Below are positions 11,593 through 58,877 of a DNA stretch of 64,000 bases, piece after piece. A program made the position numbers and the translations under genes. Each line of letters starts with the position of its first letter. Within the stretch, counting starts at the first letter, position 1. Source of the DNA: Pocillopora damicornis (taxonomy: Eukaryota); the NCBI RefSeq assembly GCF_003704095.1, contig NW_020845694.1, forward strand, positions 434,001 through 498,000. The letters are read 5' to 3'. Under the pieces are notes generated by a model. It saw only the letters and a list, made by a program, of their open reading frames with translations. It ran no database searches and was not told where the DNA came from.

Positions 11593-12931
11593 TAATGCGG
11601 TTGTTAATGTGGGTAAAGCACGGTCTAAATACAGGGTACACCATAGTTTCAAGTGCTGCGACTTTCAAGTCATCGGAGAGATTGGGCAGAATTAATTCCC
11701 CATTTGACTCTCATGAAAAAGAAAAAACAAGATGAGGCGCAAAAGTTACATTTTGCACATTGATGTTTGAATGCCAGGATATGATACTGACTCATCATGT
11801 GCTCTTAGGTCTGTAAGAGATAAAACATAAAACAAATTGGTTTTTCAAGAGAAAATAAAAGGCGCCCTCACGCTGGGAATCGAACCGGCTAAGGCCGCGC
11901 CGTATCACTTTCTAGCAGTTGGCGTGAACTTAGAGGCGAGAGGCGAGGCCTACTACAAAACTTTTTTAGGCAGTTTGATTATTGCATAATGTACATTTAT
12001 ATCCGATGCAAAATGCAAAATATCAGGAAATTACTTCTACAATTATGTCGCCGCCTGCATGAGACAATTACCATTGTATACATTCATATTCTAGAAGTTT
12101 CAGGTTGACACTTACCCAATGAGCTCATGTTATCAACTAAGATAAAAAATTTAAACTATATTTGGGTGAACTTGAAAAAATTCGTTTAATTCATTCAACT
12201 TCCCTATGTTTATTGACAACCTAAGGTAAAATTTTTTAGTCGGCCTAGACTGCTCCAAGAAGGATCACCTTGCTTATATTGTCATCAACGTTGCTCAACC
12301 TTCGTCGACGAAATGAATTTTAGTCACGCCTCTATCAGAAACTAAATTCTGCCAGAATATAGAAGCGGCTATTTAGACTCGACGTATTCAGTGAGTAAAT
12401 TTAGCCGCTCTAATCAAGTGTTTACACACAAACTGCTTGCCCTCACAGGATGTTTACTTTCGTTGTGAGTTTCAGTTTTTCCGCAATGTATCCATGACAA
12501 CTCGACGAATCCGCTCCAGCAGTTTACAAATGAATTCAGGAAGGATTTGACTAAACAAACAGTGTGTGCGAAGTCTTATGCAACTGTAATATCTATCGTG
12601 TATCCATGTAATTGATGCGCAATCATTGTCACAAGCATTGGAATATAAAAAACCAGAAATAAACCTTGCGATAAAAGTATCGTTAGAGCAAGATTTTCTT
12701 TGCTTAAGCAAGTTTATTGTGTTGATTTAGACACTTCTTTGTTGCTCATGTATATGATGCTGGTGTCGTCGAACAATTTCAACAATGTTTAATGCGCTTC
12801 AGTGAGAGTATTACAATAGATGTTGTTTCGAGAATCGCCCATAGAACGAAATGCCACCTTCTTACCCAAAACCTTGGTATGACAGTGATTATGGCTAAAA
12901 CCCAAAGAAGGAAAATTGTAAGTATTACAAT
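11593..12931. repeat. Direct tandem duplication of 9543-11010
   Basis: Colinear from TAATGC(A/G)GTTGTT to GGAAAATTG(G/T)AAGTATTA, with an internal deletion of about 110 bp; includes a truncated tRNA-Glu relic at 11865-11902. Confidence 0.9.
12472..12931 (-). pseudogene. Truncated class A GPCR pseudogene (TM4 to C-terminus only)
   Basis: ILTIFLLWVLAIITVIPRFWVRRWHFVLWAIL..., near-identical to the 3' half of the 10542-11455 pseudogene; 5' half absent. Confidence 0.82.
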
Positions 12932-13504
12932 TGAGTATTCAGTACAAGCTATACTCCAGGAGAAGCAAACTAAAATCCTGTAAGATTTGATTAGAATTTC
13001 GGATACGGCTTTATTTTCTAGAAAATCGGACATCCCAGCGGATAATACTACATGCTTTCCCTCATTCCATGAAACAGGATGAAAAAAACTGACCATCTTA
13101 GCTGGTCCGTTTCCTGACGTCTTCAGGGCCAAAATCTTAATATGTGAGCTAAATCAATATCTTCCACGGCTCACAGTGTTCCCATTCGTTAATAAAACGG
13201 TCGGGAACCGCTGACTCAAACAAATGTTATCTAAAGTTTAACTGATGAAACCTGGGTGATGAAATTAATTTTACAAAATTTTAAGAACGCTTTGTTTAAC
13301 TTTTGATATCAATGGCACTTGCTGTGATACATGGCCTTCGGTGACTCTTAAGAGATTGCAAGACTTAACCATCGATCGCTAGTATCTGATTACTTATTTT
13401 TTTATTTTTTTTTTTACACTTGGAGTAAACCGTCTTCAGTGTTGGTCAAAAATATCTCGGAACTGAATGTGGAACACAGCTGGCGTTAAATTAGAAATAG
13501 AAAT

Positions 13505-37446: not shown

Positions 37447-38406
37447 TTATATGGCTCGGCGTACTTGCGTATTTCTCCAGCAGTAAATAAAAGGATTTAC
37501 CGACGAGTTTATGAATACAATCGTTGTTGCATAATCATAAGCGATTTTTATCGACCACGTATAGCCTTGAATCGCTTCTACTGCACTGACTGCAATAAAT
37601 GGCAGATAAAACATCAGCATAATACCATAAAGATAAATTACGGTAGTGGCTGATTTTTTACAATTAAAAGCATCAACTGGGTTGTTTTGTGACCTGTTTC
37701 GTACGTTTCTCAAGTGAGCTATTTTTTTAATGTGGCTATTTATTTGGCTTTGATGTCTTCGTGCAATTTGATATATCTTCCACGTGCAAAATGTGGATGA
37801 AAAAATATTCACAACAACAAGAGAAACCGGAATGATGACCCAGTTTCGAACCCAAAACTTCAAAATGGTGACAATACAGCAAAAAACCCACACTGCTATC
37901 ATGGCTATCGTAATGCGGCACACTGTGATCGTGCTTTTGTATCGCAAGTGAAGCGTTAAGGCGAGGAGTCGGTCGACAGAAGCTGCACCGAGGATGATAA
38001 AGGACACACTCGAAGTTATCCATCCACAAAAGAACTCAATCATTCGCAAGTTACAATACGCGTTGAATTTTTTGAGACTCTCCGCTACCTTGTAGGCAAC
38101 GAATGAGGGCTGGCCAACAAATCCCACAAGAAAATCAGACGTTGCTAAGAAAAATAACAGAGCGAACGATGGCGAATGAAGTTCTCGTTTCTTCCAGATT
38201 ACGAGCATGACGATTCCATTTCCAAATACTGCAGACAGTGCAAAGACGCTGCTAAATAGACATGATATGACACTCACTGTGACATCGTGTACTGTCTTTG
38301 TCCAATATACTTCCATGAAGAAACATGTTAACTTATCGGTGGAATTCATGGTTGACGAATATGTGATGCCACTGATCTCAAATGGATCATACTGCTCCCA
38401 CGACAA
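37447..38406 (-). CDS. Single-exon orphan class A GPCR, 319 aa (alternative start 38349); C-terminus cut by a probable premature TAA
   Basis: 7TM; GNGIV, LATSD, SVDRL, FYLP, NPFIY; the frame continues past TAA as SYLRKLSF... to a stop at 37378-37380. Confidence 0.92.
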   Translation of the reverse strand: MSWEQYDPFEISGITYSSTMNSTDKLTCFFMEVYWTKTVHDVTVSVISCLFSSVFALSAVFGNGIVMLVIWKKRELHSPSFALLFFLATSDFLVGFVGQPSFVAYKVAESLKKFNAYCNLRMIEFFCGWITSSVSFIILGAASVDRLLALTLHLRYKSTITVCRITIAMIAVWVFCCIVTILKFWVRNWVIIPVSLVVVNIFSSTFCTWKIYQIARRHQSQINSHIKKIAHLRNVRNRSQNNPVDAFNCKKSATTVIYLYGIMLMFYLPFIAVSAVEAIQGYTWSIKIAYDYATTIVFINSSVNPFIYCWRNTQVRRAI

Positions 38407-38663
38407 TATGGCTTCATGGTTTCAAAAGCACAATTTTTTATATCAGTTTCACTTGGAAAGGCATTCACTTTGAGCACTCGATTTACAAACACGTGATTAG
38501 AAACGACAAGTTTAGTTAGATACGTCGTGTAAAACCCTGGAAAAGTATGAAAAGAGCGAGTGAGTAAATAATTAACTTTGACTGTTAAATTCTTCTGTGT
38601 ACACAATTATTTCGCTTGAAAATTAGAATTTCTCTATTCGAAAACCCGAGGGATGGATAGGAG
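38407..38663. promoter_or_regulatory. Candidate bidirectional promoter between the GPCR (-) and P4HTM-like paralog B (+)
   Basis: Two start codons point away from each other 257 bp apart (314 bp with the 38349 ATG); includes an E-box CACGTG near 38490. Confidence 0.45.
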
Positions 38664-41600
38664 ATGAGGTTTGTGTGGATATTTCGCGTATTTTTCATTT
38701 CCGTTTTTTTAAATGGGACCTGTGGTGATCGTGGTAATTTGAAGAAATTTTGGAAACCTTGTTTTGTCGGAGATCAAATAGAAAACACGTGCACCGATCC
38801 AAGTAACTCTTGTCACGGGAAATCAGACAAACAGTTCAAGCTTGTCCGCTTGGAGGGAGTGAAGGTAACTAAATAAATAGTTATTAATACGTATATGTAC
38901 CTAGAAAAGGAAACTGGCTTTTTTTCGGTGGAACTTTACATAAGTTCCGTAGGTCACCGGCTTGCTTTTTTTTTCGCTTTCTAATACCAGTTTCCAATTT
39001 GTTGGCACAGGTTGTTTTTTTTTGTTATTCTTAGCTGGTTGCTGGTTGCAAGTGCAGGTAAACAGAAATCAATCGAGAAAAGAGCTTTGTTCGTAAAAAA
39101 GTGAACCTGTTAACTCTGGTCTTCCCTCTCCGCTAAATTCGAGATTGTTTTTTTCCATGTGGCTTGTCACTGTCAAGTAATCGCGTTTTTCTACTTTGCT
39201 TACGCAATTGAAATCTCTCAGTATTTGATTTCCTCGATAAATTCCAATTCCCCTGTAGGTAGTTATCTTGAAATATAAAAGAGAATGAAATCACATCCAA
39301 ATGTTCATCAAGCGTCCTCGATTTATTTGTACTAGAAAACTTTGATCTCAGTAAAATGCACGTTCAGTTTTGACCAAATACGTAGGTGGGGCAAATCCAT
39401 GCAACAGCTTCATTTGAAGTTACGCGAATGCATTCAAAATCCACGCAGTGTATTCATAAAAATCGCCACCCGACATTGTCTACCAACTTAAATCTGTTTC
39501 AACTGTTTGTTTTAATTCATAACAATCCGAAGGTTGTTCCTCTCTTATGGACCGATTAAACTTGCCTCGCCATGCGAATCCCTCTACATCTCCATTGATT
39601 ATTCAGCCTTTGTATTCCGGTGTCAAGTTCACGATTCTTAAACCATTTTATTCAATTATTTGCTTTTGATTTAAGATAAAAAAGGCTACACAATCCATTT
39701 CAAAGGGTATAACTCTTTACTTTTAATTTACATCGTCTACGTACAGACAGGTCACGTGCAGTGGTTGGAAGTCGACGATGGGAGGAAGCCCGTAAAACTC
39801 ATCACTCGAGCAATGACACCATTAGTTCTTGGTATGTAACTCTTTCTCTTGAAGTTGTATTTGTGTGATCTTTTCTTTAAGAATTGTTTCGAATTAGATC
39901 AGTTTTAAGTAAGACACTGATAAAAGTAAGTGTTGACAACCAAAAGGAGAAAAAAATTTTGCGCCTGATATGGGACTTGAACCCATGACCCTCAGATTAA
40001 AAGTCTGATGCTCTACCGACTGAGCTAACCGGGCTCACAGAAATTTTCAACTGTGGAAATGAAAATTCCGTAAACTAGCAGCAGAGTAAGAGTTGGATTT
40101 GACTTTATTCTACATGCACTGCGCATAGTGGTCGCATCAGTTATCAACAGGGTATAGTTACGTTGCAATTGCACGGTGAATTTAGCTGAAAGTACGGTCA
40201 AATGCAACTCCTCTATAGACTTTCGCTCTCTGGTAACAAGGGCTCCCATATAATTTGATTAAACTTCATAACTGTTCGCATTGCATAATCATTCACCGGT
40301 TTATAGTTGCCATGCTGTTGTGGTATTCATAAAGTAGATGCGAAGGAAAATTAAAAGAAGCACACAAAAAAAGACTAAAACTATGAATCTGTCATTGTGA
40401 GGCTGTTGTTGTAGTCGCAAATGCCAACACCATGACATTATTTGGCTGCGAGGATCGACTCGACCGCAGTAGAATTCGGACAGCAGCTCAACAATTATGC
40501 ATTTTCCAGATGATCCACATTTCCAGCCTCTTGGATTGGACAATTAGAGAGAAATGGACTCTCGTTAACCCTTAGAGACAGTTCGCTGAGCTTTGATGGC
40601 CATTTATATTGCCACACTGCTCGCCTTATCAAACGTAGCTGCGACATGGATTAGGGTATATGTGTTAGGAAACCGAAAAATTCGATAGACTGGCGAATGA
40701 ATCAAAGTTAATAAATTCGTCCAGGGTGCTGGATGACGAATACATCAAACAAAATAACGTTTGCTGCACTGATTTCTCTTTCCTTCGTGGAAGGAGAAAA
40801 TAACCGCATGCTCACGGAGAATAGGTTCCCAAATGCTTTGGATACTCGATATTTTTTCGAAAGTTTTCTAATGCTCCCAGTTGTGATTTCGCTGTACGTA
40901 GAGATTCCCGACTTCTTGTCAGAGGAAGAGTGTGATCACATCATAACACTGGCAAAGGAAAGTGGACTCCAGACAAGTACTTCAGGATATTTCACCTACG
41001 ACGGAGACTTGGACGAGGAACTAGCCCTAGCTGGTGAGCTGGATCTAGAATTACGGAAAATGACCAAAACAATTTTCAGAGTTTAGATCAATTAATTTTT
41101 TTGAGCATTTTAATGAAGCAAAAAAATTTGGAAACGTGGTAAGCCGCAACAGGTGTGCGCAAGTCAGCTCATGACCCTGCTACACGTGAACAATGCAAAG
41201 AAATTAAATTGAGCCTTTTTTTGTCGGGATCAGATTCTTTTTTTCTCTTGAGTACTTTAACTGTATTCCAGCTCAACCATGATTATTAAAGAAGTCTAAA
41301 ATCCATTATGATATTGAGATATATTATGATATTGACCACACTCCACAATAAGCCAGCAGAAAACATCTCTCTGACCTATTTCTTTTAAGACAGTGACTGG
41401 ACTCTCGCGCCTGAGCAAGCATTTGCTGGAAACTACAGTCTTTGGGATGCAAATGGTGATGGTTCCATTGATGCACAAGAGGTACTGCATTTGGGAAGTC
41501 ACTTGCGTAATGTAATAAAATTAAAGTGCTCGGAGGTCTTATGATCGTTTACCAAAAAATCAAATTGCTTTTATTGTTGAAGGTGAAGGCATTTGCTGGA

Positions 41601-44600
41601 AAACACAAACAACTCTATCTGGATGATGAAGAAGTGCAAGAAATGTAAGAACATTTGACTGTAGTTGTTTTCCCTTTGTTAAAAAATAGAGCGTCCCGAG
41701 AATTTCGGCTCATTTTTGCAATGTAAGGAATAACCATAAAGGAGCATTTAAAGAGGAAATTTATGATTTAAGGATGAAGAAGAATAATACAGATTACAAA
41801 CGACGAACTTGAAGACGCTAGGCTTAATTTTATGACGACATGAACCCATGACCGCATTACTTTCTCAGGATTAGTAGAGTATTCAACTTATAAGTATTAC
41901 TCTAGTTTCAACAAGCAGTTGTCTATAACAGGTTTACACGGTTCTCAGGAGGTTACCTTGAAACGTGAAGGTAGGAAATGAATGAAGCCAGCTGATGAGA
42001 AAATGCAAGAGAAATCTCCTACAGAAACGTATAGGATTGTGCATTATAAAGTTTATCGTACCTTTGACGCTTCTTGACATTTGGAGAGTAAGGATGTTGC
42101 AATGGTGACAGCGCATGCTCTCTCGTGCTGCCGCCTGATTTCGATTCTCGTAGCCGGGGCATGTTTCCCAAAAGTACCGGCAACTTTATGGGCCGTTTCT
42201 TAATCAACGACTTTTTATCTTTTAGGGTTAAACACCTTCAAATCAATGATGAGCTCAGAGATGGTAGGTAAAATAAATAAAGATACGTGTAGACTTTCCA
42301 CAGAGACATGATCGGAACAATATAACCCTTGTCAACATAAATTTCTTATCACTCAAAATGTGAAAAGCTACCTCAGGGAAACTATCTGAACCATTTACAA
42401 AAAAAGAACTGAATGAATGTTTGTTAAATTTCAGGGAGAATAAAAGAGCAATTTTTCAACAAGTTGAATATCAACAAGATAATGCGGTACATGAATTTTT
42501 TGAAAGACAAAAGCCCACGCCATAGGTTTCGTTTTAGCCAGCAGGCCTGGTTACGGCAGGACAAAACCGCTGACCCTGTTCTGAGACGTCTTCATGAAAG
42601 GTATTTTGAAATTTGAGTCAATGACAAAATATTGCCAGGATGTGCGATTGAAATCAAGAGAGATTCTATAAGATTAAGTTTTGTAAGGTTTGGCGCATTA
42701 AATATCTATGTATTTTGTGTTAGGGTTATAAGGCTAACCAAACTTCCGAGAAGGATAGTCCAAGGGGGAGAACCAATGCAGGTAAATAACGATTTTGTGC
42801 CGATCCAGTTACTGTTTGCAGGATATTAGATATGCTAATCACATTTAGAAGGAAATTAAACTCCATAAATTTCATATCACTTGTAAAATGAAGTTAAAAA
42901 ATAATTCCTAGAATGATATAAAGCTTTCCCACGCCGGGAATCGAACCCGGGCCGCGGCGGTGAGAGCGCCGAATCCTAACCACTAGACCACGTGGGAACT
43001 TACTTAATCGCTAATAAATCGCTCCTGAAATTTCTAACAGTCTTAAAATAACGAATTTTTAATGATAATATACCAAACGGGTTGTTTGATTTCTTACTTG
43101 TTGAGACGAGTGTGCACGACAGCAGTGATTGAAAAGCCATTGAGTTTCCTACCTGGTAAAATGTAACCACTGCTACACGTGGAACCATTTCGAAGTCTTG
43201 TGAATTTTGAGAAAGTTTGCTATTTTTTACTTTTTAGGTTCTTCGTTATGAGAAGTTTGGTCATTATCACGGCCACCTGGATTCTACCATAAAAGACCCC
43301 ACAGTCCCTTGCTGTCATCAAAACCATCTCAGAGCACCCGACTGCAGAGTCTGTAGGTAAGATTTTCACCCTAGGAGGTTACTCGGGAAATGCATCTGAA
43401 AGAATGGCGAAGAATAAATGAAACAAAGAAAAAACTATAGTACTTACGAGCTGCGTACGAATGGACAAGAAAGCGAGTGAGCGAACGTTGGGTGAGAAAC
43501 AGAACGAACGAGTGATTGAGTGAGTGAGACTGAAAAGAGTTGTCAACCAGTCAGTCAGTGAATCAAAGTGTCAGTGTTTCAGCGAGTCAATGAGTCAGTG
43601 ACTCAGTGAGTTGGTGCGCGCACGCGTTATATGAGTGCGTGGATACGTGTATCAGTGATTGGATGCGTACGAATTATTGTGTCAGTGAATGAGTGACTGG
43701 GTTCGCACGAAACCTTTGGATTGAAGAGGAGTGAGTGATCTTAATGAGTGAATGAGTGAGCGAGTGAGTTTAATTTATGAGTGAATGATCGAGTGTGTAT
43801 TCGGGTGAGGGAGTGAGGATTATCATGGTTAAGTTTTGCTTATGGTGGGTCACGAGGTTTTTTAACTACCATGTGATATGACCAAATTTTCTCTTTCAGG
43901 TTTATCACTATTTTGTATTATCTTAACAATGTAGAAGAAGGAGGAGAAACAGCTTTCTTGATAGCTGATAACACTACAACCACTCCAGATGTAAGTAACT
44001 CAACTTTCCGCATACTCAAATTCGCAGCTTATACACTATGGGTAGCTTATTCAACAAGGATATCAACAACTGATCCTGATCATAGACAACGCAATTCTTC
44101 AAGGAAAAAAAAGGAAATGAAAAGAGAAAAAACCGTAGTTTCCAATTTGACAATCTTTTTCTTAATGAACAAAGCAACCTAATGGTCTTTCATAGAACAC
44201 AAATACAGAGGCAGGTAAGGGATACTGATTCATTTTTTCCTCCTAGATCTCTTTCCTAAATATTAAATATTAAGTCTGAATTTTACTAAACAAAGAGATA
44301 TATCATATTATTTAATCTTGAAGATCATAACATGCTAATGAATTATTTTTTTGCGTAGAAGTACTGATCTTAGAGTGCTAAAGCTCTCGATGCATACTTG
44401 ACCTTGCTCACTAGAGCGCCGTATATGTAGGCGACCTCTTCGTATGATATTTCTTAGTTTACCCTTGGCTTAAAATATCAGTAACAGCATGTCCCTGAAG
44501 ACTTTCTGCAGTAAACTGCGGCATCGTCTTGAAAAATTTTTACCCAAAAAATATGCATAAGAAAGTGAGTCGTGTTTGCACTAAAACGCAAGCACAGCAT

Positions 44601-44958
44601 GCACACAACTAGTAGTGTTGTATGCATCGAGCTTCAAGGGGAGTTATTCTTTCCTTTGTTTGATTTGGATTATTTTCAGGAAATTGAAAATTCAAAAGCC
44701 GCGACAAATGAATTCAATCTCAGCATCAATTGTCATTCAGCGAACCTAGTACTACCTCCAATGAAGGGCACGGCCATTATGTGGTACAACAATTTCATCG
44801 ACCCAGACAGTGGTCTGCTCGGAGCAGTGGACCGCTCCACGTATCATGGAGGATGTGACGTCATCAAGGGAGAAAAATGGATCGCTAACAATTGGCTGAC
44901 AGCGCCAACCAAATACTCAAAACACATCAAGAGCATGTTTGATACAGGATTTGATTAA
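38664..44958 (+). CDS. P4HTM: P4HTM-like EF-hand prolyl 4-hydroxylase, paralog B (11 exons, 440 aa)
   Basis: GT-AG exons 38664-38864, 39747-39831, 40902-41033, 41390-41481, 41583-41644, 42226-42263, 42435-42600, 42724-42781, 43238-43356, 43900-43990, 44680-44958 join in frame (1323 nt). EF-hand DANGDGSIDAQE, HYHGHLD (HxD), YLNNVEEGGETAF, YHGGCDVIKGEKWIANNW. Confidence 0.95.
39962..40034 (-). tRNA. trnK-UUU: tRNA-Lys (anticodon TTT), antisense in intron 2 of paralog B
   Basis: GCCCGGTTAGCTCAGTCGGTAGAGCATCAGACTTTTAATCTGAGGGTCATGGGTTCAAGTCCCATATCAGGCG; a T-run follows; one C-A mismatch in the acceptor stem. Confidence 0.9.
42926..42997 (-). tRNA. trnE-CUC: tRNA-Glu (CTC), antisense in intron 8 of paralog B
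   Basis: Intact 72-nt cloverleaf TCCCACGTGGTCTAGTGGTTAGGATTCGGCGCTCTCACCGCCGCGGCCCGGGTTCGATTCCCGGCGTGGGAA. Confidence 0.96.
43470..43820. repeat. Degenerate (GAGT/GAAT/CAGT)n tetranucleotide microsatellite
   Basis: Runs such as GAGTGAGTGAG and GAGTGAATGAGTGAGCGAGTGAGT in intron 9 of paralog B. Confidence 0.75.
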
Positions 44959-45345
44959 AACTGGTGAAAACAAAAATGTTAAATTAGTTTAGCTTGTCTT
45001 TATAAGCCTATCGTCTTTCTTGCTCAGATAACTTTTATTTAGAGACAACCAAAATCCTCCACCCCTCTCCGGCGATGAAGAATGGCCGGTCTCTAAGATA
45101 AATACTTAATGTTGATTCTCTTCATTGATACTTACCCATCATTATATTCATGAGCTCAGCAAAGAGAGATGTTGTTTTTATTTTGCTTTTCTTTTTCTGT
45201 TGTTTTGTTGTTTTAACTTTTACTTTTTTATGTTTTTGTTGTTGTTTTTTTCTCCTTTGGGTTAAAATATGTGGATACTAGCTATGAAGGTAAATCGTTC
45301 GCACAAAAATTAATAACCAGTTCAGAAGACAATCAAAATGAAAAG

Positions 45346-45417
45346 TTCCCACGCCGGGAATCGAACCCAGGCCGCGGCGGTGAAAGCGCCGAATCCTAAC
45401 TACTAGACCACGTGGGA
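45346..45417 (-). tRNA. trnE-UUC: tRNA-Glu (TTC), possibly impaired
   Basis: 72-nt cloverleaf between convergent paralogs B and C; D-loop GG is changed to AG (TAGTAGTT) and the T stem has a U-G pair. Confidence 0.85.
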
Positions 45418-45965: not shown

Positions 45966-48900
45966 TCAATCAAACCCAACATCATAGGCACTCTTAAAAT
46001 GTCTAGAGTTTTTTGTTGGCGCTGTTAGCCAATTATTTGCAATCCACTTTTCTCCTTTAATGACGTCACAACCACCGTGAATCGAATTGACATCCAAGTC
46101 CCCAAGAAGTTCACTGTCCGGGTCAATAAAATTGTTGTACCACATGATGGCAGTACCTTTCTTGGGCGGGATAACAAGATTAGCCATTTGACAACTGATA
46201 CTCAGATTGAATTCGTCTGATTCGGGATTCGGCAGCTCCTGAGTCAAATTTTACAATAAAGTATTAGTCATTATATGTACTAATATTTGACGATATATAA
46301 GTAATCTCTTATTTTGAAGTTGTTCGATTTGAGCACATTTGGATTGAGTGTCTTAAGAGAAACAGCCAATCAGAAAAATGCAAAGGGACAAAATGAAGAA
46401 AATAAGAAATCACGATAAAAATAGAAGCCTGGGAAAATCTGAGTGACCAAACCGCCATTATTTGGAAATGAAGTTCGAGTCTCCTATAGCGTGTACGTGA
46501 GAAAGAAATTATTCAAATTACAAATTTAAAGTATAACTTACGGTACGGACCGGTGTGCTTGCAAACGGTCAAAAAAACAAAAATCATAAAGATGATAGTG
46601 ACTAACAATAGAGGTCAATTCCACAAAAAATTGAACTGGACATTTAATTCTTAGGGTAGAACTAACCTCTTACCTTAAAAGTTATCGTGGAATTATCCGC
46701 CAGAGGAAATGCTGTTTCTCCTCCTTGCTCTACGTCATTGAGGTAATACAAAATAGTGACGAATCTGAGAAACAAATCAAAAAGAGCATATCTGTTTGAA
46801 TGAATTCAAAATTACCCTAACACGTAAAGAAAATATCTGCAAATGAGGTATAATTAATTTATAGCAAAGCAGCTCAGCTCACCTGCAAAGTCTACACTGA
46901 GGCGGCCTTAGATCCACATTTTGATGACAGCAAGGGACGCTGGGATCCATACCAGAGTCAAAGTGCGCATGATAGTGACCTGATGTTTGGTAGCGAACGA
47001 CCTGAGAATGACACAAATCAGATGTCTGATGAGAAAACTTGAAAACGTGACCATTTCCACGGCAGTGAATCTAATTTTAACCAATTATTTTCATACTTTG
47101 TGAATAAAGTGGTTCCAAAATAGACGCGAGGTGCTACAATCATAGGAAGGGGTAAACTTGAAATAAAATGTAAAGTGGCACGATATAAGATTATCATGAT
47201 CTATTTTTTTTTTTACCTGCATTGATTCACTACCTTGAAGCAATTTTCTTGGGAGCTTCGTTAACTTAGCAATTCTGCAACAAATAAGACATTTACATTG
47301 TTAATCTTACCCATAAATAATGGGCTACTGATTGAGGTTTGATTTAATGGACTTACAAGTCCAATTTACGATTTTCTCCTTCAAGTCCCCATATTTACTC
47401 ACGATCTGCCGTCAAAAAATGTGTTTTTTGAATTTTTTTTTATACCGTATACTAACCTTTCATGAAGGCGTCGTAAAATGTGGTCAGCAGTTTTGTCTTG
47501 ACGTAACCAAGCCTGGTCGCTGTACCGGAATTTATGTTGGGGACTTGAGGTCCTCAGAAAACTCATATAGGAAAGAAGTTTCTTTACATTTCCGTCACTT
47601 AAATAATTGGTGGTAATTTTTTCTAGGAGCAATTAAGGTAAATGCACGTTATAAGTTTCACTTGGAACAATCAAGTAAGGTTTTTAATAATTAAACTTTA
47701 TTATCAAGTTATTTCCTTCTAGTCCATGACCCGTATAATTTGAGGCTAAGGAAGAAGTGCTATCGACTTAAAACTTTGTTATTGACTGAGTCACTTTCCA
47801 ATTGGACTTCACGTGACACAGTTCATTCCCAGGTCCAAATCTAATTCACTTACTCTATAATTAGGATTTCGCTTCAAACGATAGTACGTAGTCAGTACTG
47901 GATCAAAGGCACAATTCAATTCTTACTTATTTACCTTCGGTATTATCATCGAATGCCAACCCACAGCTTTCTAACCTTGATAAAAAGAAATATTCCACAA
48001 ATTGTGACTCATTGATATCATACCATCCATTTGCTTTGAGTGAGACTGAGAGGAAATTTTAATTCGTCACATGTTAGACCATTTTCATACTCACATTTGA
48101 ACTATTTCCTCTTGTTTCAAGTGAAGTGATTTATACATCTTTGCAAATTTTCTGATCTGTGAAAAAAAAAGAACTTTTATGGGCCAAGTGAGCTATGATT
48201 TTAATGAAAACTTAAAACAAAAAATGAAAATGCTCGTGTGTTCAGATCGCAGAGTCTTATCTTCCCCTTAGGCTTCAGGAGAATTTTCGAGTGGGCATCG
48301 GGAGTAAACAGAAATTGCATCTGTTTTGCTTTAAAACGCTCTCTGATTGGTTTACGAAACTGTCCCTGTCCCCTTGGGTTTGGTTCTTCGACACTCAATC
48401 TAAACACGTTTTATCATCCAGTGAGAGGTGTCAAAAATGGCTGTGAAACACGATAATTTTTCATATAAATTATATATTTGGCGTAATTTAAAAGGTAATT
48501 CTTGTGTTATCATGCTACTACACTTACTTTTGTTGACAAGTTCATTTATAATCAATCATATAAATATTCAATATTCATTTAAAGAAATTTCCATAATTTA
48601 TCTTACCTCCTCTATATCAACAACATTATCTTTGTTTCTATCCCAGACGTTCAAGTCTCGTGCAAAATAATCCTCTTTGTCAAGAGTTGTATTTCTGTCT
48701 TGAAAGAAAACTAGCAAAAATTACTATCACATACTATGTAAACGTCCATACATTCATAGAGAGCTTACGTACATATTTCGATAATCCCGCGAAATTTCTC
48801 CAATTAATTCTCAGCTTTAAATCATACAGTGGGCGTGGGAGAAAAAGTTCAACCTCCTTTGCTTTTGAATAAAAATTTCATACCAAACTTGCATTCTGAT

Positions 48901-50364
48901 CAGAAGATCAAACCACGTTGTGCACAACGTGAGTAAGCACGTTACATCACTTGTCTGGGAAAAGATTTTATATTTAACAGAGGATTGTTGCAATTAAGCA
49001 TACCCACCAACTTGTTTCAAGACCTCGTTCAAGTCTTTCTCATCAAATTTAATTGCAACCTGACTAGCGCTGAGTCCTGCCTCCTTTGCGAGCGAAATCA
49101 CGTGCTCGCATTCGTCATCGGTTAGAAAATGAGGAATTTCTAAGGATAAGGAACAGTTTTAGAATTTTTCTGTATTAAATTCTTTTAGTTTTGTATTTAT
49201 TTCAGTTGTAATGATGTTTATCTTAGTTGAAGGTTAAGTCTAAAGACCCATGTGATGTGCAATATTTATTCGACTTTTTATCAGTATATATTACACCACA
49301 GTTCAATCCTTTTCAGTTGGTTTTACTTGTTCATGATAGCCACATTGCAAAAAATTCTTCAAACATAACCTTACCAAATAATAATGGCCTCATAGCTCTG
49401 GTGATCAACTTGTAACTTCTTCCTTCTTCCAACTCTAACCATTGCACGTGACCTGTCTAATTAAATGCAACTACTAATGAGTGTTAGGGATCCCTCATTA
49501 CTTATCGCGCACCTCGGGGTCGGAAGATTTTGGTTGTGTCACAACAGTTGTATTCTAATGATCCCAGTCATTGGCAGTCAATTTTCCTTCGTTCCCCTCC
49601 CCCTCCCCTAACATTCTGTTGAAGACGATTGATCCTACCCCCTAAAAACCATGTGATTCCCCAAAAAATCTTCCGACGCCCTCTCCAGGTATTGGAAATG
49701 CTTTGTGCTCTCTACACAAGAGACAAGTTTTTGCTTCTTTTTTAGTATATAGCAGGTGCCAGTCAAAGCAACCAGGTTGTAGGACATCTTTGTTTTCTTA
49801 ACCGTGTCCGTGATGTTATTGTTTATAACTTATGTTTTCAACTTCAAAATGTTACAGTTTGTTATATATAATTACACATTAAGATATTTTAAAAATCAAA
49901 GTTATGTTCTTATAGATTGTGTTATATCAATTGTGTTACGAAGACCACAGCTCTACCATATGAACCTAGCAACACTTTTTATTTGAATAGAAATGAATAA
50001 GAAAGTTAGTCTCAACTCAGTGATTGCTAAAATCAGTCCTTGAATGAATACCTTAAAGTTATTTGAAATAATAAAAATATCAGAGAGTAGCTAAAAACTT
50101 ATTTCTTTTGTTACTTCCTTGTATTATTATATTCAACAGAAATAGTTACCTACTCACCCGTTTACCCTGTAGATGAACAAGTTTAAAACTATTTCTCCCG
50201 TCTTTATCAAATGACTCGTCGAAAAAAGAATATTGGGTGAGGTCTTGATCTTCCTCAAAACACGGTTCTTTGAACATTTTGTTTTTGACTGTAGTGCCCT
50301 CTAACTTGGGAAGTTTGAAAAAATTAAATAAAACCATAAAAAATGACGTTCTGGTGAGATTCAT
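45966..50364 (-). CDS. P4HTM: P4HTM-like EF-hand prolyl 4-hydroxylase, paralog C (11 exons, 440 aa)
   Basis: GT-AG exons 50364-50158, 49456-49375, 49139-49008, 48698-48607, 48156-48095, 47975-47935, 47622-47457, 47274-47217, 47001-46883, 46764-46674, 46238-45966 join in frame. EF-hand DRNKDNVVDIEE, HYHAHFD, YLNDVEQGGETAF, IHGGCDVIKGEKWIANNW. Confidence 0.95.
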
Positions 50365-52513: not shown

Positions 52514-55500
52514 TTAATCATGATCCCTTTTAATTTTTCTTCGATATATACTGGGAATGTGCTGGTAATTCTCATATGGTGCTGGTATCCAGTGATTGGC
52601 TATCCACTTGTGTCCTCGTCTGACGTCACAGCCTCCGTGTAGGGAGTAAGGGTCTCTATCCCCAAGCCACTCGCTGTCGGAGTCAAGGTAGTGATTGTAC
52701 CACATGACGGCTGTGCCTCGTTTTGGTGCTATTACCAAACTGGCGTCTTGACAGTAGTTACTGAGATTATAGGGATCTCCTTGTTGGCCTCGTTTCGCTA
52801 ATAGGATCTGTTAATTTAAAATTCTAAATATCTTAAACTCGTGGGAGGTGGGGCGACATAAAGTTCAGCGCTGGACTGTATCTGAATCGAGCAGTTTGTG
52901 AGCAAACGCAAACTAAGCTTGTTACTAATAAGCAAGTTACTCCACTCTTATGCTGCCCCCCTCCCCTCCACGGAGTGTAAATGCTGCCTCCCTTCCCCTC
53001 CCCCCCATAACATGTCGGGGAGACCTGACCGCGGATAACCTATTATTCTAGGTGAAGTACTTGTGATGTTTGACGCTTCCGAAGAAGAAACTGATCTTGC
53101 AGAAATATTTAACCTCTAGGATTTAGGTCAATGGTTTTTAAAGATCAAGAACATTAAGGGGATTGGAAATGAGTAGCGTGAAAAATACAAGCCAATTTTT
53201 TTCTAAGATACTTAAACATTAACAAAGGTCCATTAAAGTTAAGATCTCACCGATTGGTTCAGAGTTGAATTATCAGCCACTATAAAAGCTGTTTCGCCTC
53301 CTTCCTCAACGTCGTTCAAATAGTAAAGAATTGTGACGAACCTGGAATTTAAGAAAAGGAAATGTTTAGCATACTCTTGAGATGAGTTNNNNNNNNNNNN
53401 NNNNNNNNNNNNNNNNNNNNNNNNNNNNNNNNNNNNNNNNNNNNNNNNNNNNNNNNNNNNNNNNNNNNNNNNNNNNNNNNNNNNNNNNNNNNNNNNNNNN
53501 NNNNNNNNNNNNNNNNNNNNNNNNNNNNNNNNNNNNNNNNNNNNNNNNNNNNNNNNNNNNNNNNNNNNNNNNNNNNNNNNNNNNNNNNNNNNNNNNNNNN
53601 NNNNNNNNNNNNNNNNNNNNNNNNNNNNNNNNNNNNNNNNNNNNNNNNNNNNNNNNNNNNNNNNNNNNNNNNNNNNNNNNNNNNNNNNNNNNNNNNNNNN
53701 NNNNNNNNNNNNNNNNNNNNNNNNNNNNNNNNNNNNNNNNNNNNNNNNNNNNNNNNNNNNNNNNNNNNNNNNNNNNNNNNNNNNNNNNNNNNNNNNNNNN
53801 NNNNNNNNNNNNNNNNNNNNNNNNNNNNNNNNNNNNNNNNNNNNNNNNNNNNNNNNNNNNNNNNNNNNNNNNNNNNNNNNNNNNNNNNNNNNNNNNNNNN
53901 NNNNNNNNNNNNNNNNNNNNNNGACGCAAATGGTACAAAAAAAGGGGTCCGAGCAATCTGTCTCTATCCATTGAAAGTAGTAAAAAAGTTTATTTATTAC
54001 GAATGTAAGGGATTTTAAGGGATTAATGTTTAATCCAAGTTAATGTTCCTAACCTGTGTTGTTTTATTTGTCATACTTTTGGCACAGGGGTTAAAGATCG
54101 ACCGGGAGAGTCGCACAAAGAAAGAGAATCAAAATAAAAACTTCCCACGCCGGGAATCGAACCCGGGCCGCGGCGGTGAGAGCGCCGAATCCTAANNNNN
54201 NNNNNNNNNNNNNNNNNNNNNNNNNNNNNNNNNNNNNNNNNNNNNNNNNNNNNNNNNNNNNNNNNNNNNNNNNNNNNNNNNNNNNNNNNNNNNNNCAGTT
54301 CAAATATATGATTTTCATATATTCACAACCGTTTAATACCATTATCGGGACAAGTTTTTACTGAGCACCTACCCATCAACCCTAACCCTAACATCAGTAT
54401 CCTTATTAAATGAATAAAAATGAATGAATAGATAAATAAATAAATTAACTGATTAATAAAAGAAATGAAGTCGTTGGTGCTCTTAGGTATATTCTCGAAT
54501 ACAGATCTCAAGCATCGAGTAAAGATGACTGAAGAGGACAAGAATGGAGAGATCTTATGTTCTCTTTTAACGATATAGTGACGTTAAGTGCAAGTAATTT
54601 TGTTAAATCACACACCTGTCAATAATTTTATTTTGTATTGGGTCTGGGGTGGTGCTGTGTAACCAGGCCGTGTGACTGTAGCGCGATCTATGTCTTGGGT
54701 GTTTCCTTGCCATTGTCTTCACGAACTTGAAGAGATCATTCGCGTCCATTTTTCTGTATGTGTCATAGCTCACGGCTCCTATGCATGAAACAAAGACAAT
54801 TTTGATCCACCGAACGGAAAGTCTTAAGATTTAAGGAGTTGACTGAGTTACATGTATTATCTTCATTGACATCATCATTGCGCAGAAGCATTACATATCG
54901 ACATTCCTATCTTAGCAGTATGGAAGTTAAACTGCCCAGCCTGCCACGATACGTCTCCTATAATACAGTGGTAGACCATCCGAAGTACCGATATGAAGGT
55001 GTCAGGTTCAGCTCCCATTAAGAGTACTCGGAGTTCTTTTTCTCCGAGTATGCCTGTATCATTCGCTGAATAAAATCGTCTTTCACCACAAAAATCTGAT
55101 TTCAATAAGCTATCGTTTTCTAACCTAGACAAACTTTACATGTTCGACGACAGTTTCTTAGCATCCAGTTAGCATGATCTGGGTGGAGGCATTTTCCTTC
55201 TTTTTCCAGAGAAGAGCAGTTGGCTGCCAGGTCTTCACATCCACAGTTTCCACACGCTTTCCTACAGGTGAGTAGCATCCAAACTGGAAAGTTCTCACAT
55301 TCTCCGTCCTGCGCGTATTTGGAGCAATCAGCTTCATTATCATCGCAGAGGAGGCCTATAAATTAAGGCTTTTTTTAGTAAGAAAAGCTGTAGAGCCAGT
55401 GGAAAAAGCAAAGAGACGATAAAAAAACAAAACAAAAGAACATTACACCAGAGATCAAAATAGAAAAAAAAACCGTAAAATTGTTAAACAAATGCGCATT

Positions 55501-58500
55501 GAAAATTTGTTTTTTTTGTTCTCTTCTACTGGCGGTCTTTCGTCACAATTTAATTAAAGATGATCTTCTCATATTACCATATCTCGTGTTCGTACCTCCC
55601 AAAAAGGTGGGCACGCCGTGAAAAACAATATTTGTTGGATAGTGGGAGGGGAATATTTTTTTCCTACAACCTGTTTAATCAACTTAGCTTAATTTTTTTT
55701 TCAGTCAGGTCAAATTTTGATGTTTACATAGCAAAAGCCGCGTGCTTTTTAAAATTGCTTTTATCAATAGTACTTACCTGAACCAAACTGTGTGACGTTC
55801 AAATCTAAAAACCTGTAGTTGTGCCAGATAAAACCAAACAAGGATACGATTATAGCAAGCGACGTAATAAATGTATGTAGATTCACGATAGGTGAAGGAT
55901 CATCGGGAATGTATATTTGATATTAGAGAACATTCGTCTTAAGAGCATGGGCATTTATAGGAAAACACAAGGTAACTGTACAGTGAACTGTTGAAGGTTA
56001 TCTGGTTAGTGCACTTAACCGCATGTGACATGACGCTTTTTTCCATTTGACTTCAAATATTTCCAACATTCACTATTATGTCAAATACTTGCATCTCTTG
56101 TAGATCTTGTTCATCCAAGTACATGAAAAATAATCTTTCTACTGCCTTACTGAACTAAAACAAAGACAAAACATAAAAATCGCAAACTTTAAAAAAAATT
56201 GACCACAACTTTTTTAATTTCACCACAAAAGCTTTCGCGCCTAGAAATAAAATCAAAACTTAAGAAAACTTTTTTATCCTTCTTTGCATATTAATTTTGT
56301 TTTTGCTTTTCGCTGAAGCGAAGATCTGGAAGTGAAATTGTTCTCTCTTCATACAACATAATGACCCAGTAGAGGAAATAACAAATTTCAAATGTAGCCA
56401 AAATATTGCATTTGCAAATTGGATATTCAGTCATAATGTCTACAAAACCCTTCGTTGCTGACCACAAAGGAAGTTTAAACTTCCTGCGTTATAGTCGTCT
56501 TGCTTATCATGAGATCATAATTTTACTTCTTTAAGCCATTTGTAGGTTCGTACGGCAAAAGTTTTGGGCTGTTGTATATTACGATTACATTGATTGTACC
56601 TCATATCCCGTGAGTATACCATCCTCATCACGGTCCAAATCATCAAAGTCAAGAACCCTTCCATCTGAAAAGCCAATCACAAAAGTAAACTAAAACTGAC
56701 AGGAGAAAGTATGCAATCATTCATGAATTATTTCAATGAGCACTAATAAGCACAATACTTGACCCAGCAAAACAAATGTTACTAGCTCTGATCCAGGCGA
56801 AGAATCCCGCAGGAGAAAGATTGTATTACTAAACTTTTAGGTTATCAAACTCAGCAATAGACTAGTGAAAAAAAATTTGCTCCACTTACCTTCACATACC
56901 TCACAGCTCTGCTGGCAGTTTTTTAACATATACCCAGGATTTTTCTCACATTCTCCATATTTGGCCCATCTCACACATCTGTAGTCATCGTCATAACAAC
57001 TACCTATACAAATCGACAATTAAATGATATAGAGACTAATTACTAGAAAAAGAAACTCTTCTTAAAAATAAACATCTACTATAGAGCCGATCCACTCACT
57101 CACTAACTAGTCAACTGAAACACAGTGCACTCGAGCAAAGAAAAGAAGCCTAAATATTTCAGGCTCGACGGGATTCGAACCCAGGCCTCCCAGATACTGG
57201 TTGGGTATTATCACCAACTGAGCCAAGAAGCCACTCGTTGCTAATGGCCTAACTAATATCTGGGAGGCCCGGGTTCGGATCCCGTGGAAGCCAGAATCTG
57301 CTATTTCTTTAAAATTACAGTCCACCTACGAGGGTCATCTTTCTTTGAGTTTTACCCTCAAGTCAAATAACAAAAAGTTGTGATTGCGCGTAAGAGTTGT
57401 TTTTTTCTTTTTACTCACTAGCAAACTTATCTTGTTCCTCAGGCAAAGCAACTTCGCTCAACTCAAGTCCTGTTTCCTTTGCTTTTTGCATAATATGCTG
57501 GCATTCCTCTTCAGTCAAAAAATTTGGTATCTCTAAAAATGAAATACAGAAAAGCCACGTTTTATTCCCTTCCCTTTGATTTATATTCATCTGCGTCATA
57601 GTCCTCCCACGGTGGTTGTCAGTTATTCAATTTACATCTATTTTTAACACTCTCGAATTGATAAAAAAAACATGTGTTATGAATGCTCCATGAAAAAAAA
57701 TTAGGAACGTCTCAAATTGCAAAATATTCTTCTACCAAAGTGACTTTATGACTGCCACCTGTGTTTTCATGATCACAAACGTTGACTCCATTACAACCAT
57801 TCATTTCATTGACGGGTACTCTCTCTCTAGCTTTAATGTCACGTGTCTTTTTTCCACAAGCAAGAACTGAAACGTCTAGAGCGGCCTAATTTGTAAGTTT
57901 TGGAGGTATCAATAACCAGAGAAATGAGTACACTGAAGTCTCCTAACTTTAATATGAAAACGTAAAACGTACCAAAAACAGGAGGTTTGAGTGCTCGAGT
58001 GATAATTTTGTGGGTTTCCCCTGCAACTAAGAGCTCATGACTCACATGACCGACCTGCAAGAAAAATCGTTGAAAGAGTATCAGAAAGCTTAAAGTCTAA
58101 TTCGCTGAGAATATTTTAAAACTGCACTTTAAAATGACGAAATAATTATGAAAGCCACCACCAAGTGAAGTCAAAAGTCTGGGTTAATAATGAAAATAAT
58201 TTTGCAATGTTGCTTACCACTGTTTGAACTTGTTCTTCATAGCTAATAGGCAATATCTTGAACTAAGGCGAAACGATTCTTGTGTTTACAATATCAATTA
58301 GACATCGATCGTATTTGAGATAATGGAAAAGCCTTGGAAGTTTCAAAAGACAGTAAGCTACCAGCACTGCTATGAATACTCATGCAGGTCTTACGTGAAA
58401 ACGAAGCAGGTAGCTGATTTCCACCTACACAAGGAAACATCGTTTTGACTATAATGTACTTATAATGTTTAATCTATTTTACCTCGGAGAGTAAAATATT

Positions 58501-58877
58501 AAGAATAGATATCATTACTTGCGAAGGAATATCAAGGAGTCTCAAGTCAGGTTAACACTTTAACATTTAAAATCATTTCTAATATACGTCGACGTCCTTT
58601 TCACGTGTATTGCAGGCTGTAATTTTTAGTTTATTTATCAGATAAGTTTAAATAGTTGGAGGAAAAATACCTGTTTTCCATCTATGCGAACGAGTTTTCG
58701 TTTCAAGAGTGGCTGTCTTTTGACGCTGCAAGTACCTTGCTGACTTGATACATTCGCGGAGTAACATTTCTCCTTTGTCACAATATTTGGCGGATGGCTC
58801 CATTTTACAGACAAAGCACTAAGTAAAGTGCAGCTTAGACATAGGATAACTATCGCTTCTGTCAAAATTAGGCGCAT
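52514..58877 (-). CDS. P4HTM: P4HTM-like prolyl 4-hydroxylase with internal ShKT domain, paralog D (two exons hidden in assembly gaps)
   Basis: Exons 58877-58671, 58054-57973, 57532-57419, 57003-56890 (ShKT), 56664-56600 (EF-hand DRDEDGILTGYE), 56154-56093 (GC donor), 55812-55778, 54778-54616, [gaps], 53341-53251 (YLNDVEEGGETAF), 52807-52514 (LHGGCDVRRGHKWIANHW). Confidence 0.9.
54142..54195 (-). tRNA. trnE-CUC: tRNA-Glu (CTC), 5' end lost in a gap, intronic in paralog D
   Basis: The visible 54 nt are identical to the 3' part of the 42926-42997 tRNA; followed by a TTTTT terminator. Confidence 0.88.
54900..55090 (+). repeat. Degenerate tRNA-derived SINE-like repeat
   Basis: CAGTGGTAGACCATCCGAAG...GAAGGTGTCAGGTTCAGCTCCC (A/B-box-like) followed by a CTCGGAG...CTCCGAG hairpin. 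Confidence 0.5.
56890..57003 (-). other. ShKT (ShK toxin-like) domain exon of paralog D
   Basis: 114-nt phase 1-1 exon (tag|GT...GAAG|gtaag) encoding CYDDDYRCVRWAKYGECEKNPGYMLKNCQQSCEVC, the six-cysteine ShKT pattern. Confidence 0.92.
57150..57300. repeat. Palindromic tRNA-derived SINE/MITE-like element
   Basis: ACGGGATTCGAACCCAGGCCTCCCAGATA and TATCTGGGAGGCCCGGGTTCGGATCCCGT are inverted arms, each with a B-box-like GGTTCG. Confidence 0.7.

Follow-up and report, generated by a model that had tools for sequence, protein, structure and literature searches.

The closest described relative of the gene analysed here, by sequence and by fold (E 1.4e-59), is the human transmembrane prolyl 4-hydroxylase P4H-TM (structure 6TP5, PMC7948501). 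In the human enzyme an EF domain (Gln190-Asn251) is inserted in the catalytic domain and extends the substrate groove, EF-hand 1 is canonical, and EF-hand 2 (EF2) holds calcium through Asp237, Asp239, Asp241, Val243 and Glu248. Between helices alpha1 and alpha2 runs a lid loop, disordered in part and including Pro175 and Glu177-181, which probably closes over the substrate. Together with the EF domain the lid forms the walls of the substrate groove, and in homologs its residues touch the substrate (PMC7948501). Six-cysteine ShK toxin-like (ShKT) domains are known from other proteins: the type 2 prolyl 4-hydroxylases (P4Hs) of plants and algae combine a signal-like start, a P4H domain and a single C-terminal ShKT in one chain (PMC11275109), MMP23 (2K72) and the metalloproteinase 2MCR carry an ShKT as an accessory domain on a secretory enzyme (PMC6409789), and the ShK and BgK potassium-channel toxins, marked by a conserved Lys-Tyr dyad (PMC6409789), are free secreted peptides released from short precursors. 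Here we describe a P4HTM-like gene, gene D, with three ShKTs inside the enzyme. It lies in a window of 64,000 nucleotides from the stony coral Pocillopora damicornis (assembly GCF_003704095.1, contig NW_020845694.1, positions 434,001 to 498,000), and coordinates below are those of the window unless stated otherwise.

The product of gene D runs from a signal-like N-terminus through the P4H start, ShKT1, EF-hand 1 and the pair ShKT2-3 to the catalytic core, with all three ShKTs (residues 142-307 of 546) preceding the core. As in human P4H-TM, the EF domain is inserted in the catalytic domain and EF-hand 1 is canonical. D differs from the human enzyme in its three ShKTs, in an EF-hand 2 that is split and without acidic ligands, in an N-terminal hydrophobic stretch that begins at residue 1-6 in place of a cytosolic tail and transmembrane helix, and in the lack of a KDEL-type end; it is one of many cnidarian paralogs rather than a one-to-one ortholog. 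With the plant and algal type 2 enzymes D shares the signal-like start, the P4H domain and a six-cysteine ShKT in one chain, but their single ShKT is C-terminal, whereas the three of D are internal and flank the EF-hand of a P4HTM-type scaffold; we infer that corals acquired the domain independently of plants. MMP23 and 2MCR, the only solved structures to match ShKT1 at E up to 10, resemble D in cysteine spacing and in bearing the domain on a secretory enzyme, although the match is weak (E ~0.002) and in D the modules sit inside the lid and EF loops of the enzyme. Unlike the free toxins, the domains of D lie in the middle of an enzyme of ~550 residues. The other cnidarian P4HTM-like paralogs, including those of the same cluster, have the 11-exon plan and intron phases of D but no ShKT, and D forms a separate, long-stemmed lineage. 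D is thus neither a P4H-TM in the strict sense nor a plant type 2 P4H, and it is no ShK toxin; it would work as a hydroxylase of the P4H-TM type that bears ShKTs as accessory modules. Its features are as follows.

58671..58877, minus strand: gene D exon 1 (coding, start codon inferred), a hydrophobic N-terminus resembling a signal peptide, then a linker
57973..58054, minus strand: gene D exon 2, where the strands of the P4H domain begin
57419..57532, minus strand: gene D exon 3, encoding helix alpha1 and, with the LPEE motif, the first part of the lid loop
56890..57003, minus strand: ShKT1 exon of 114 nt within intron 3 of gene D, phase 1-1
56600..56664, minus strand: gene D exon 4, EF-hand 1, whose loop as read from the sequence has the canonical form D-x-D-x-D-G...E
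56093..56154, minus strand: gene D exon 5, helices of the EF domain, followed by a GC-AG intron
55778..55812, minus strand: gene D exon 6, opening half of the degenerate loop of EF-hand 2
55125..55355, minus strand: ShKT2-ShKT3 exon of 231 nt within intron 6 of gene D, phase 1-1
54616..54778, minus strand: gene D exon 7, remaining half of EF-hand 2 and return into the catalytic domain, with the equivalents of Arg273 and Trp279
53389..53922, no strand: assembly gap, the larger of two between exons 7 and 10
53251..53341, minus strand: gene D exon 10, catalytic core
52514..52807, minus strand: gene D exon 11, which carries the distal iron His (in HGGC) and the 2-oxoglutarate Lys and ends with a basic tail and the stop codon

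The ShKT1 exon is bounded by AG and GT, is in phase 1 at both ends and encodes a complete six-cysteine ShKT, which matches the whole Pfam ShK profile (PF01549, positions 1-37 of 37) with 34.9 bits (E 2.3e-8; cut-off 20.9 bits). It sits between exon 3, which carries the first segment of the catalytic domain, and exon 4, which carries the EF-hand and whose 21-residue piece alone gave no Pfam match. The symmetric exon, its complete ShKT and its place in intron 3 had been described in an earlier note made from the letters of the window alone, and they hold; the same note's single-ShKT order, P4H[ShKT-EF], does not, as it missed the exon at 55125-55355, which matches Pfam ShK in two stretches (59 bits) and makes the actual order P4H[ShKT-EF1-ShKT-ShKT]. 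The three domains of D share 35-40% pairwise identity, and Pfam ShK likewise finds three stretches in the orthologs. A six-frame scan of the whole window found no ShKT pattern outside gene D, and none was found in seven adjoining 10-kb stretches (70 kb) that cover the rest of the cluster.

Transcript evidence comes from the assembled contigs of four runs from four studies (of 22 runs), one of which, X1, is only presumed to be RNA. Three runs (X7, X8 and X1) contain the joints between exon 3 and ShKT1, exons 4 and 5, exons 5 and 6, exon 6 and ShKT2-3, and ShKT2-3 and exon 7. The joint between ShKT1 and exon 4 occurs in X8 only, where one contig of 1208 nt spans exons 3-7 with both ShKT exons, and that between exons 1 and 2 likewise occurs in one run; every joint from exon 1 through exon 7 was found among the four. 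X10 holds only unspliced contigs and is uninformative on splicing. ShKT1 is thus included in transcripts. The further suggestion that its exon could be skipped in frame as a cassette found no support, since a joint skipping either ShKT exon was seen in none of the four sets of contigs; minor skipping may nevertheless occur, because contigs drop rare forms. The intron after exon 5 begins with GC (donor 56092-56091) where paralogs B and C have GT, and its joint is present in three of the four runs. Interspersed short repeats in the introns of gene D (54870-55064 and 57165-57205) draw many unrelated RNA contigs.

Gene D is not peculiar to this genome. With its Oculina ortholog as query, 196 matches were obtained, and ShK was present in 8 of the 120 listed: Oculina, Desmophyllum, Pocillopora, Stylophora, Porites, Acropora and Montipora, plus one more record inside their clade. 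Among the matches listed, ShK was absent from the relatives in Nematostella, Actinia, Actinostola, Xenia, Dendronephthya, Paramuricea, Hydra and Rhopilema, and from those in molluscs, echinoderms and hemichordates; corallimorpharians did not appear among the named matches, and no search was aimed at them. The insert-rich region alone, used as query, returned the same eight among nine matches. A profile search of 1.84 billion representatives gave, within the best 150 of 6516 matches, one full-length match (1133 bits), followed by one of 331 bits to the catalytic part only. A custom ShKT profile matched 7 of 189 proteins with the P4H end motif, all of them D orthologs; the Desmophyllum model, without this motif, stood outside that set. 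The architecture is thus not widespread among invertebrate P4HTM-like proteins; so far it has turned up in stony corals alone, where seven genera representing both main clades have kept it. Neither outcome that would have counted against the earlier note was seen, since the exon does enter transcripts and few of the relatives share the architecture.

Three ShKTs are present in the models from Oculina, Desmophyllum, Acropora, Montipora, Porites and Pocillopora, and that from Stylophora contains ShKT1 but the ShKT2-3 pair only in part. Among five orthologs, mean pairwise identity is 78, 81 and 74% for ShKT1, ShKT2 and ShKT3 (73, 78 and 69% without cysteines), whereas the catalytic core reaches 78-83%, the EF region 68% and the lid linker 52%. 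The non-cysteine residues of the ShKTs are therefore about as conserved as the core (69-78% against 77-83%), which suggests conserved binding surfaces. H-x-D is found in all eight ortholog rows and HGGC...K...W in the D part of six, the other two being fused models that end short of this region; iron, 2-oxoglutarate and most substrate-contact residues are retained. The public models of five genera that fuse gene D to gene C were rejected as real fusions and are likely annotation errors, because D has its own stop codon and is listed alone in other annotations. Judged from these models, D lies directly upstream of C in the five genera. The public model for the present genome also omits several exons of D.

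The catalytic part is incomplete in this assembly. Exons 8 and 9, to which the H-x-D iron motif belongs, are missing from the assembled sequence and have no close match elsewhere in the genome; we place them in the two assembly gaps, as an RNA contig continues past exon 7 into exon-8-like sequence and the orthologs possess both exons. The distal His, Thr and Lys are visible in the window. By hydropathy, the N-terminal peak (2.24) starts at residue 4 here and at residue 1-6 overall, no later segment exceeds 1.42, and the combination of cytosolic tail, transmembrane helix and C-terminal retention signal for the endoplasmic reticulum (ER) was not found. The signal-like N-terminus and the lack of a KDEL-type end therefore point to a soluble prolyl hydroxylase of the secretory pathway as the predicted product.

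The inserts appear to have been gained in the D lineage rather than lost from the others. Trees were built without the ShKT domains, using FastTree on 72 rows (8 with ShK) and IQ-TREE on 33 of these rows. The D orthologs form one group (support 100/100, stem 1.36), and the ShK label needs a single change on the tree. Paralogs B and C cluster with ShKT-free genes of anemones and octocorals, so D is no recent copy of them and loss in A-C need not be invoked. The conservation of D in both main clades makes the gains at least as old as the split between these clades; it is likely that they predate it, and there is no upper bound on their age. Both insertions are in phase 1 introns common to A-C. 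Of 35 other ShKT domains in the genome, 21 have both predicted splice sites scoreable (each above 3 bits; sites outside gene D are predicted, without an RNA check), and 20 of the 21 are in phase 1-1, compared with 12 of 119 random control positions. ShKT is therefore a phase 1-1 module in this genome, and exon shuffling, as the earlier note had supposed, is the likely source of both exons, which presumably arrived in two separate insertion events. The predicted ShKT exons across the genome often stand in tandem arrays. A search of the genome yielded no close donor for either exon: the best other ShKT has 58% identity (E 2.5e-9) and the best match to the pair at most 53%. Short proteins of 100-180 residues that match the double ShKT were considered as donors and rejected, as they are read-throughs of the same exon with the same boundaries.

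The comparators within the window, which together with D make four P4HTM-like paralogs on one exon plan (A, C and D on the minus strand, B on the plus strand), are the following.

551..3433, minus strand: paralog A, exons 1-4, the remainder beyond the window start; without ShKT
38664..44958, plus strand: paralog B; without ShKT
45966..50337, minus strand: paralog C, 11-exon plan as in D; without ShKT

The exons next to ShKT1 are shorter in D than in A-C, exon 3 having 114 nt (138, 132 and 132 in the paralogs) and exon 4 having 65 nt (92 in each). This had been noted before, but it is no net loss relative to the human enzyme: without its ShKT, the lid span has 24-25 residues in six orthologs and 21 here, compared with 23 in human. 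In the alignment to the human enzyme, the coral LPEE/LPDE motif falls on the lid residues Pro175 and Glu177-178; ShKT1 starts 10-14 residues past the lid proline, and it ends ~11 residues before the first Asp of EF-hand 1. With a lid span near the human length, ShKT1 reads as inserted cleanly where the predicted lid loop reaches its C-terminal end, immediately ahead of EF-hand 1. The first residue downstream of the second insert aligns to Val243, which puts the break made by ShKT2-3 at the glycine (position 6) of the EF2 loop. The EF1 loop is canonical in all D rows. In contrast, the position-5 Asp/Asn and the position-12 Glu of EF2 are each missing from all eight D rows, whereas 51 of 65 other rows have both; D would thus lack the pair of calcium-binding EF-hands, and EF-hand 1 is its only likely calcium site. 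EF2 has degenerated at least twice in coral P4HTM-like genes.

As far as structure prediction goes, two AlphaFold models (from alignments of 70 and 43 rows) are confident in the catalytic and EF core, which superposes on 6TP5 with Z 34.6 (346 residues aligned, root-mean-square deviation 7.5), and helices at 177-232 and 310-334 reach a per-residue confidence (pLDDT) of ~75-87. The inserts have pLDDT ~30-60, and their spatial position is for this reason taken from sequence mapping only.

We propose that gene D encodes a P4HTM-like prolyl hydroxylase of the secretory pathway into which three ShKTs are spliced from two phase 1-1 exons. ShKT1 would stand at the end of the lid loop that likely closes over the peptide substrate, ShKT2-3 would take the place of the second calcium site, so that calcium is likely to bind at EF-hand 1 only, and the domains would hold a substrate or partner beside the substrate groove. 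The insertion site appears to fit such a role in substrate recognition, and the conservation of the ShKTs outside their cysteines suggests binding surfaces. On this view, a prediction to which we give an even chance, the three ShKTs would be non-toxic, constitutive parts of the enzyme that serve to dock a substrate or partner next to the groove. We are highly confident of the architecture, its splicing and its gain in a single clade, far more so than of any function. Several observations weigh against the docking proposal. At a pLDDT of ~30-60, neither model predicts with confidence a three-disulfide ShK fold of the inserts or their position relative to the groove. As we read PMC7948501, EF2 lies farther from the groove than the lid, and ShKT2-3 may differ in role from ShKT1. 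The position-12 Glu of EF2 is also missing in 13 of the 65 other rows, largely of the ShKT-free A-C lineage, so the loss of EF2 need not be tied to the insert. The equivalent of Trp279 is Phe in Acropora and Montipora (two of eight rows), the H-x-D exon is unassembled in this genome, and three of six listed RNA variants in the ShKT exons change a residue, too short a list to serve as a test of selection. Lastly, the only ShKT on a P4H for which we found a tested role acts as a Golgi-localisation domain (PMC11275109).

This last point leads to the main alternative, possible if on the whole doubtful, in which the ShKTs are address tags: they would substitute for a transmembrane anchor or KDEL signal and hold a soluble lumenal enzyme on a Golgi or ER membrane or on the extracellular matrix, like the C-terminal toxin-homology domain of plant type 2 P4H. 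The plant domain Tox1 sends green fluorescent protein to the Golgi and needs its cysteines to do so (PMC11275109), and D has a hydrophobic stretch at the very start, no second hydrophobic segment and no KDEL-type end; algal and diatom P4H clusters with ShK in the ESM Atlas (scores 0.81-0.82, with no match at 0.9 or above) are a lead only. However, the ShKT-free paralogs B and C also have no KDEL-type end and the same type of N-terminus, and a tag has no need to be inserted in the lid and EF loops, though the available phase 1 introns may have dictated the sites. It is improbable that the modules serve the enzyme itself without any outside ligand, by stiffening the lid through their disulfides, replacing the calcium-dependent movement of the EF domain or mediating dimerisation. 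ShKT2-3 do lie exactly in the EF2 loop, whose ligands are gone in all eight rows, and calcium alters the compactness of human P4H-TM, of which monomer and dimer exist (PMC7948501); yet the A-C lineage lost its EF2 ligands without an insert, and the conservation of the non-cysteine residues suggests a surface that binds something.

That the ShKT exon is an optional cassette, or a passenger that this paralog alone tolerates, is very improbable. Each of the two exons is symmetric and has a length divisible by three, which means that skipping would stay in frame, and contigs would not reveal it if rare; but inclusion joints stand in three of four runs and skipping joints in none, the full-length ortholog models examined all carry three domains, and the conservation spans both coral clades. 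Least credible, and extremely improbable, is a function as ion-channel ligands, either within the protein, as in MMP23, or as released venom peptides. The ShKT of MMP23 does modulate Kv1 without the Lys-Tyr dyad (PMC6409789). At the place that we take, from ShK spacing and not from an alignment, to be that of the dyad, the window has Gly-Tyr and two of ten rows, both the ShKT1 of Acropora, have Lys-Tyr; the dyad is not conserved, as Lys is replaced by Gly, Asp or Thr in the other eight. Net charges are mostly near zero or negative, and no dibasic release sites were seen flanking the domains in gene D, from which release would in any case cut the enzyme apart.

Gene D belongs to a cluster of nine P4HTM-like genes in mixed orientation at ~430-551 kb of the contig. 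Human P4HTM is a single-copy gene. Matches to the last exon of these genes number nine within ~120 kb of this contig and 21 genome-wide, which is a large cnidarian expansion; the last exon of D is 100% identical to a database protein labelled Pocillopora damicornis. Three tRNA-Glu genes and one tRNA-Lys gene are found among the cluster (4530-4603, 39961-40034, 42925-42998 and 45345-45417), two of the four inside introns of gene B. A single-exon open reading frame for a rhodopsin-family seven-transmembrane receptor lies at 37450-38421 on the minus strand (Pfam 7tm_1, 72 bits), with broken look-alike copies near 10545-11137 and 12417-13153. A tandem repeat with a unit of ~24 nt occupies ~800-1320 in intron 3 of gene A, the intron that carries the ShKT1 exon in D.

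No description of ShKTs inside a P4HTM-type protein was found in searches of full-text literature outside subscription journals, chiefly at the level of title and abstract; the passages of PMC7853314 and PMC9363990 held nothing bearing on the architecture. The coral proteins are already in public databases as 'transmembrane prolyl 4-hydroxylase-like', with ShK precomputed. Coral 'P4HTM' has been reported to respond to deoxygenation, disease and branch-tip growth (PMC9622859, PMC10202950, PMC4320547), in passages that name no paralog, where the present cluster alone has nine. Venom pipelines that score ShK matches could misfile the D enzyme as a toxin. With ShKTs at the C-terminus in plants and inside the enzyme in corals, D represents a second, apparently independent pairing of ShKT and P4H.

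Even for human P4H-TM the substrate is unsettled (PMC7948501), and D, whose lid loop and EF-hand 2 have probably carried inserts since before the main stony coral clades parted, is a natural variant for the study of substrate choice and calcium control. A more specific reading, that the scaffold was given ShKTs in its lid and in its second calcium sensor and was thereby aimed at a secreted substrate specific to scleractinians, is speculative and we consider it unlikely. If true, it would mean that a calcium-tuned enzyme became an ShKT-directed one, acting for example on a skeletal-matrix or other proline-rich substrate, and gene D would then be a lineage-defining enzyme innovation of stony corals and a natural probe of the lid and EF2 in an orphan human enzyme.

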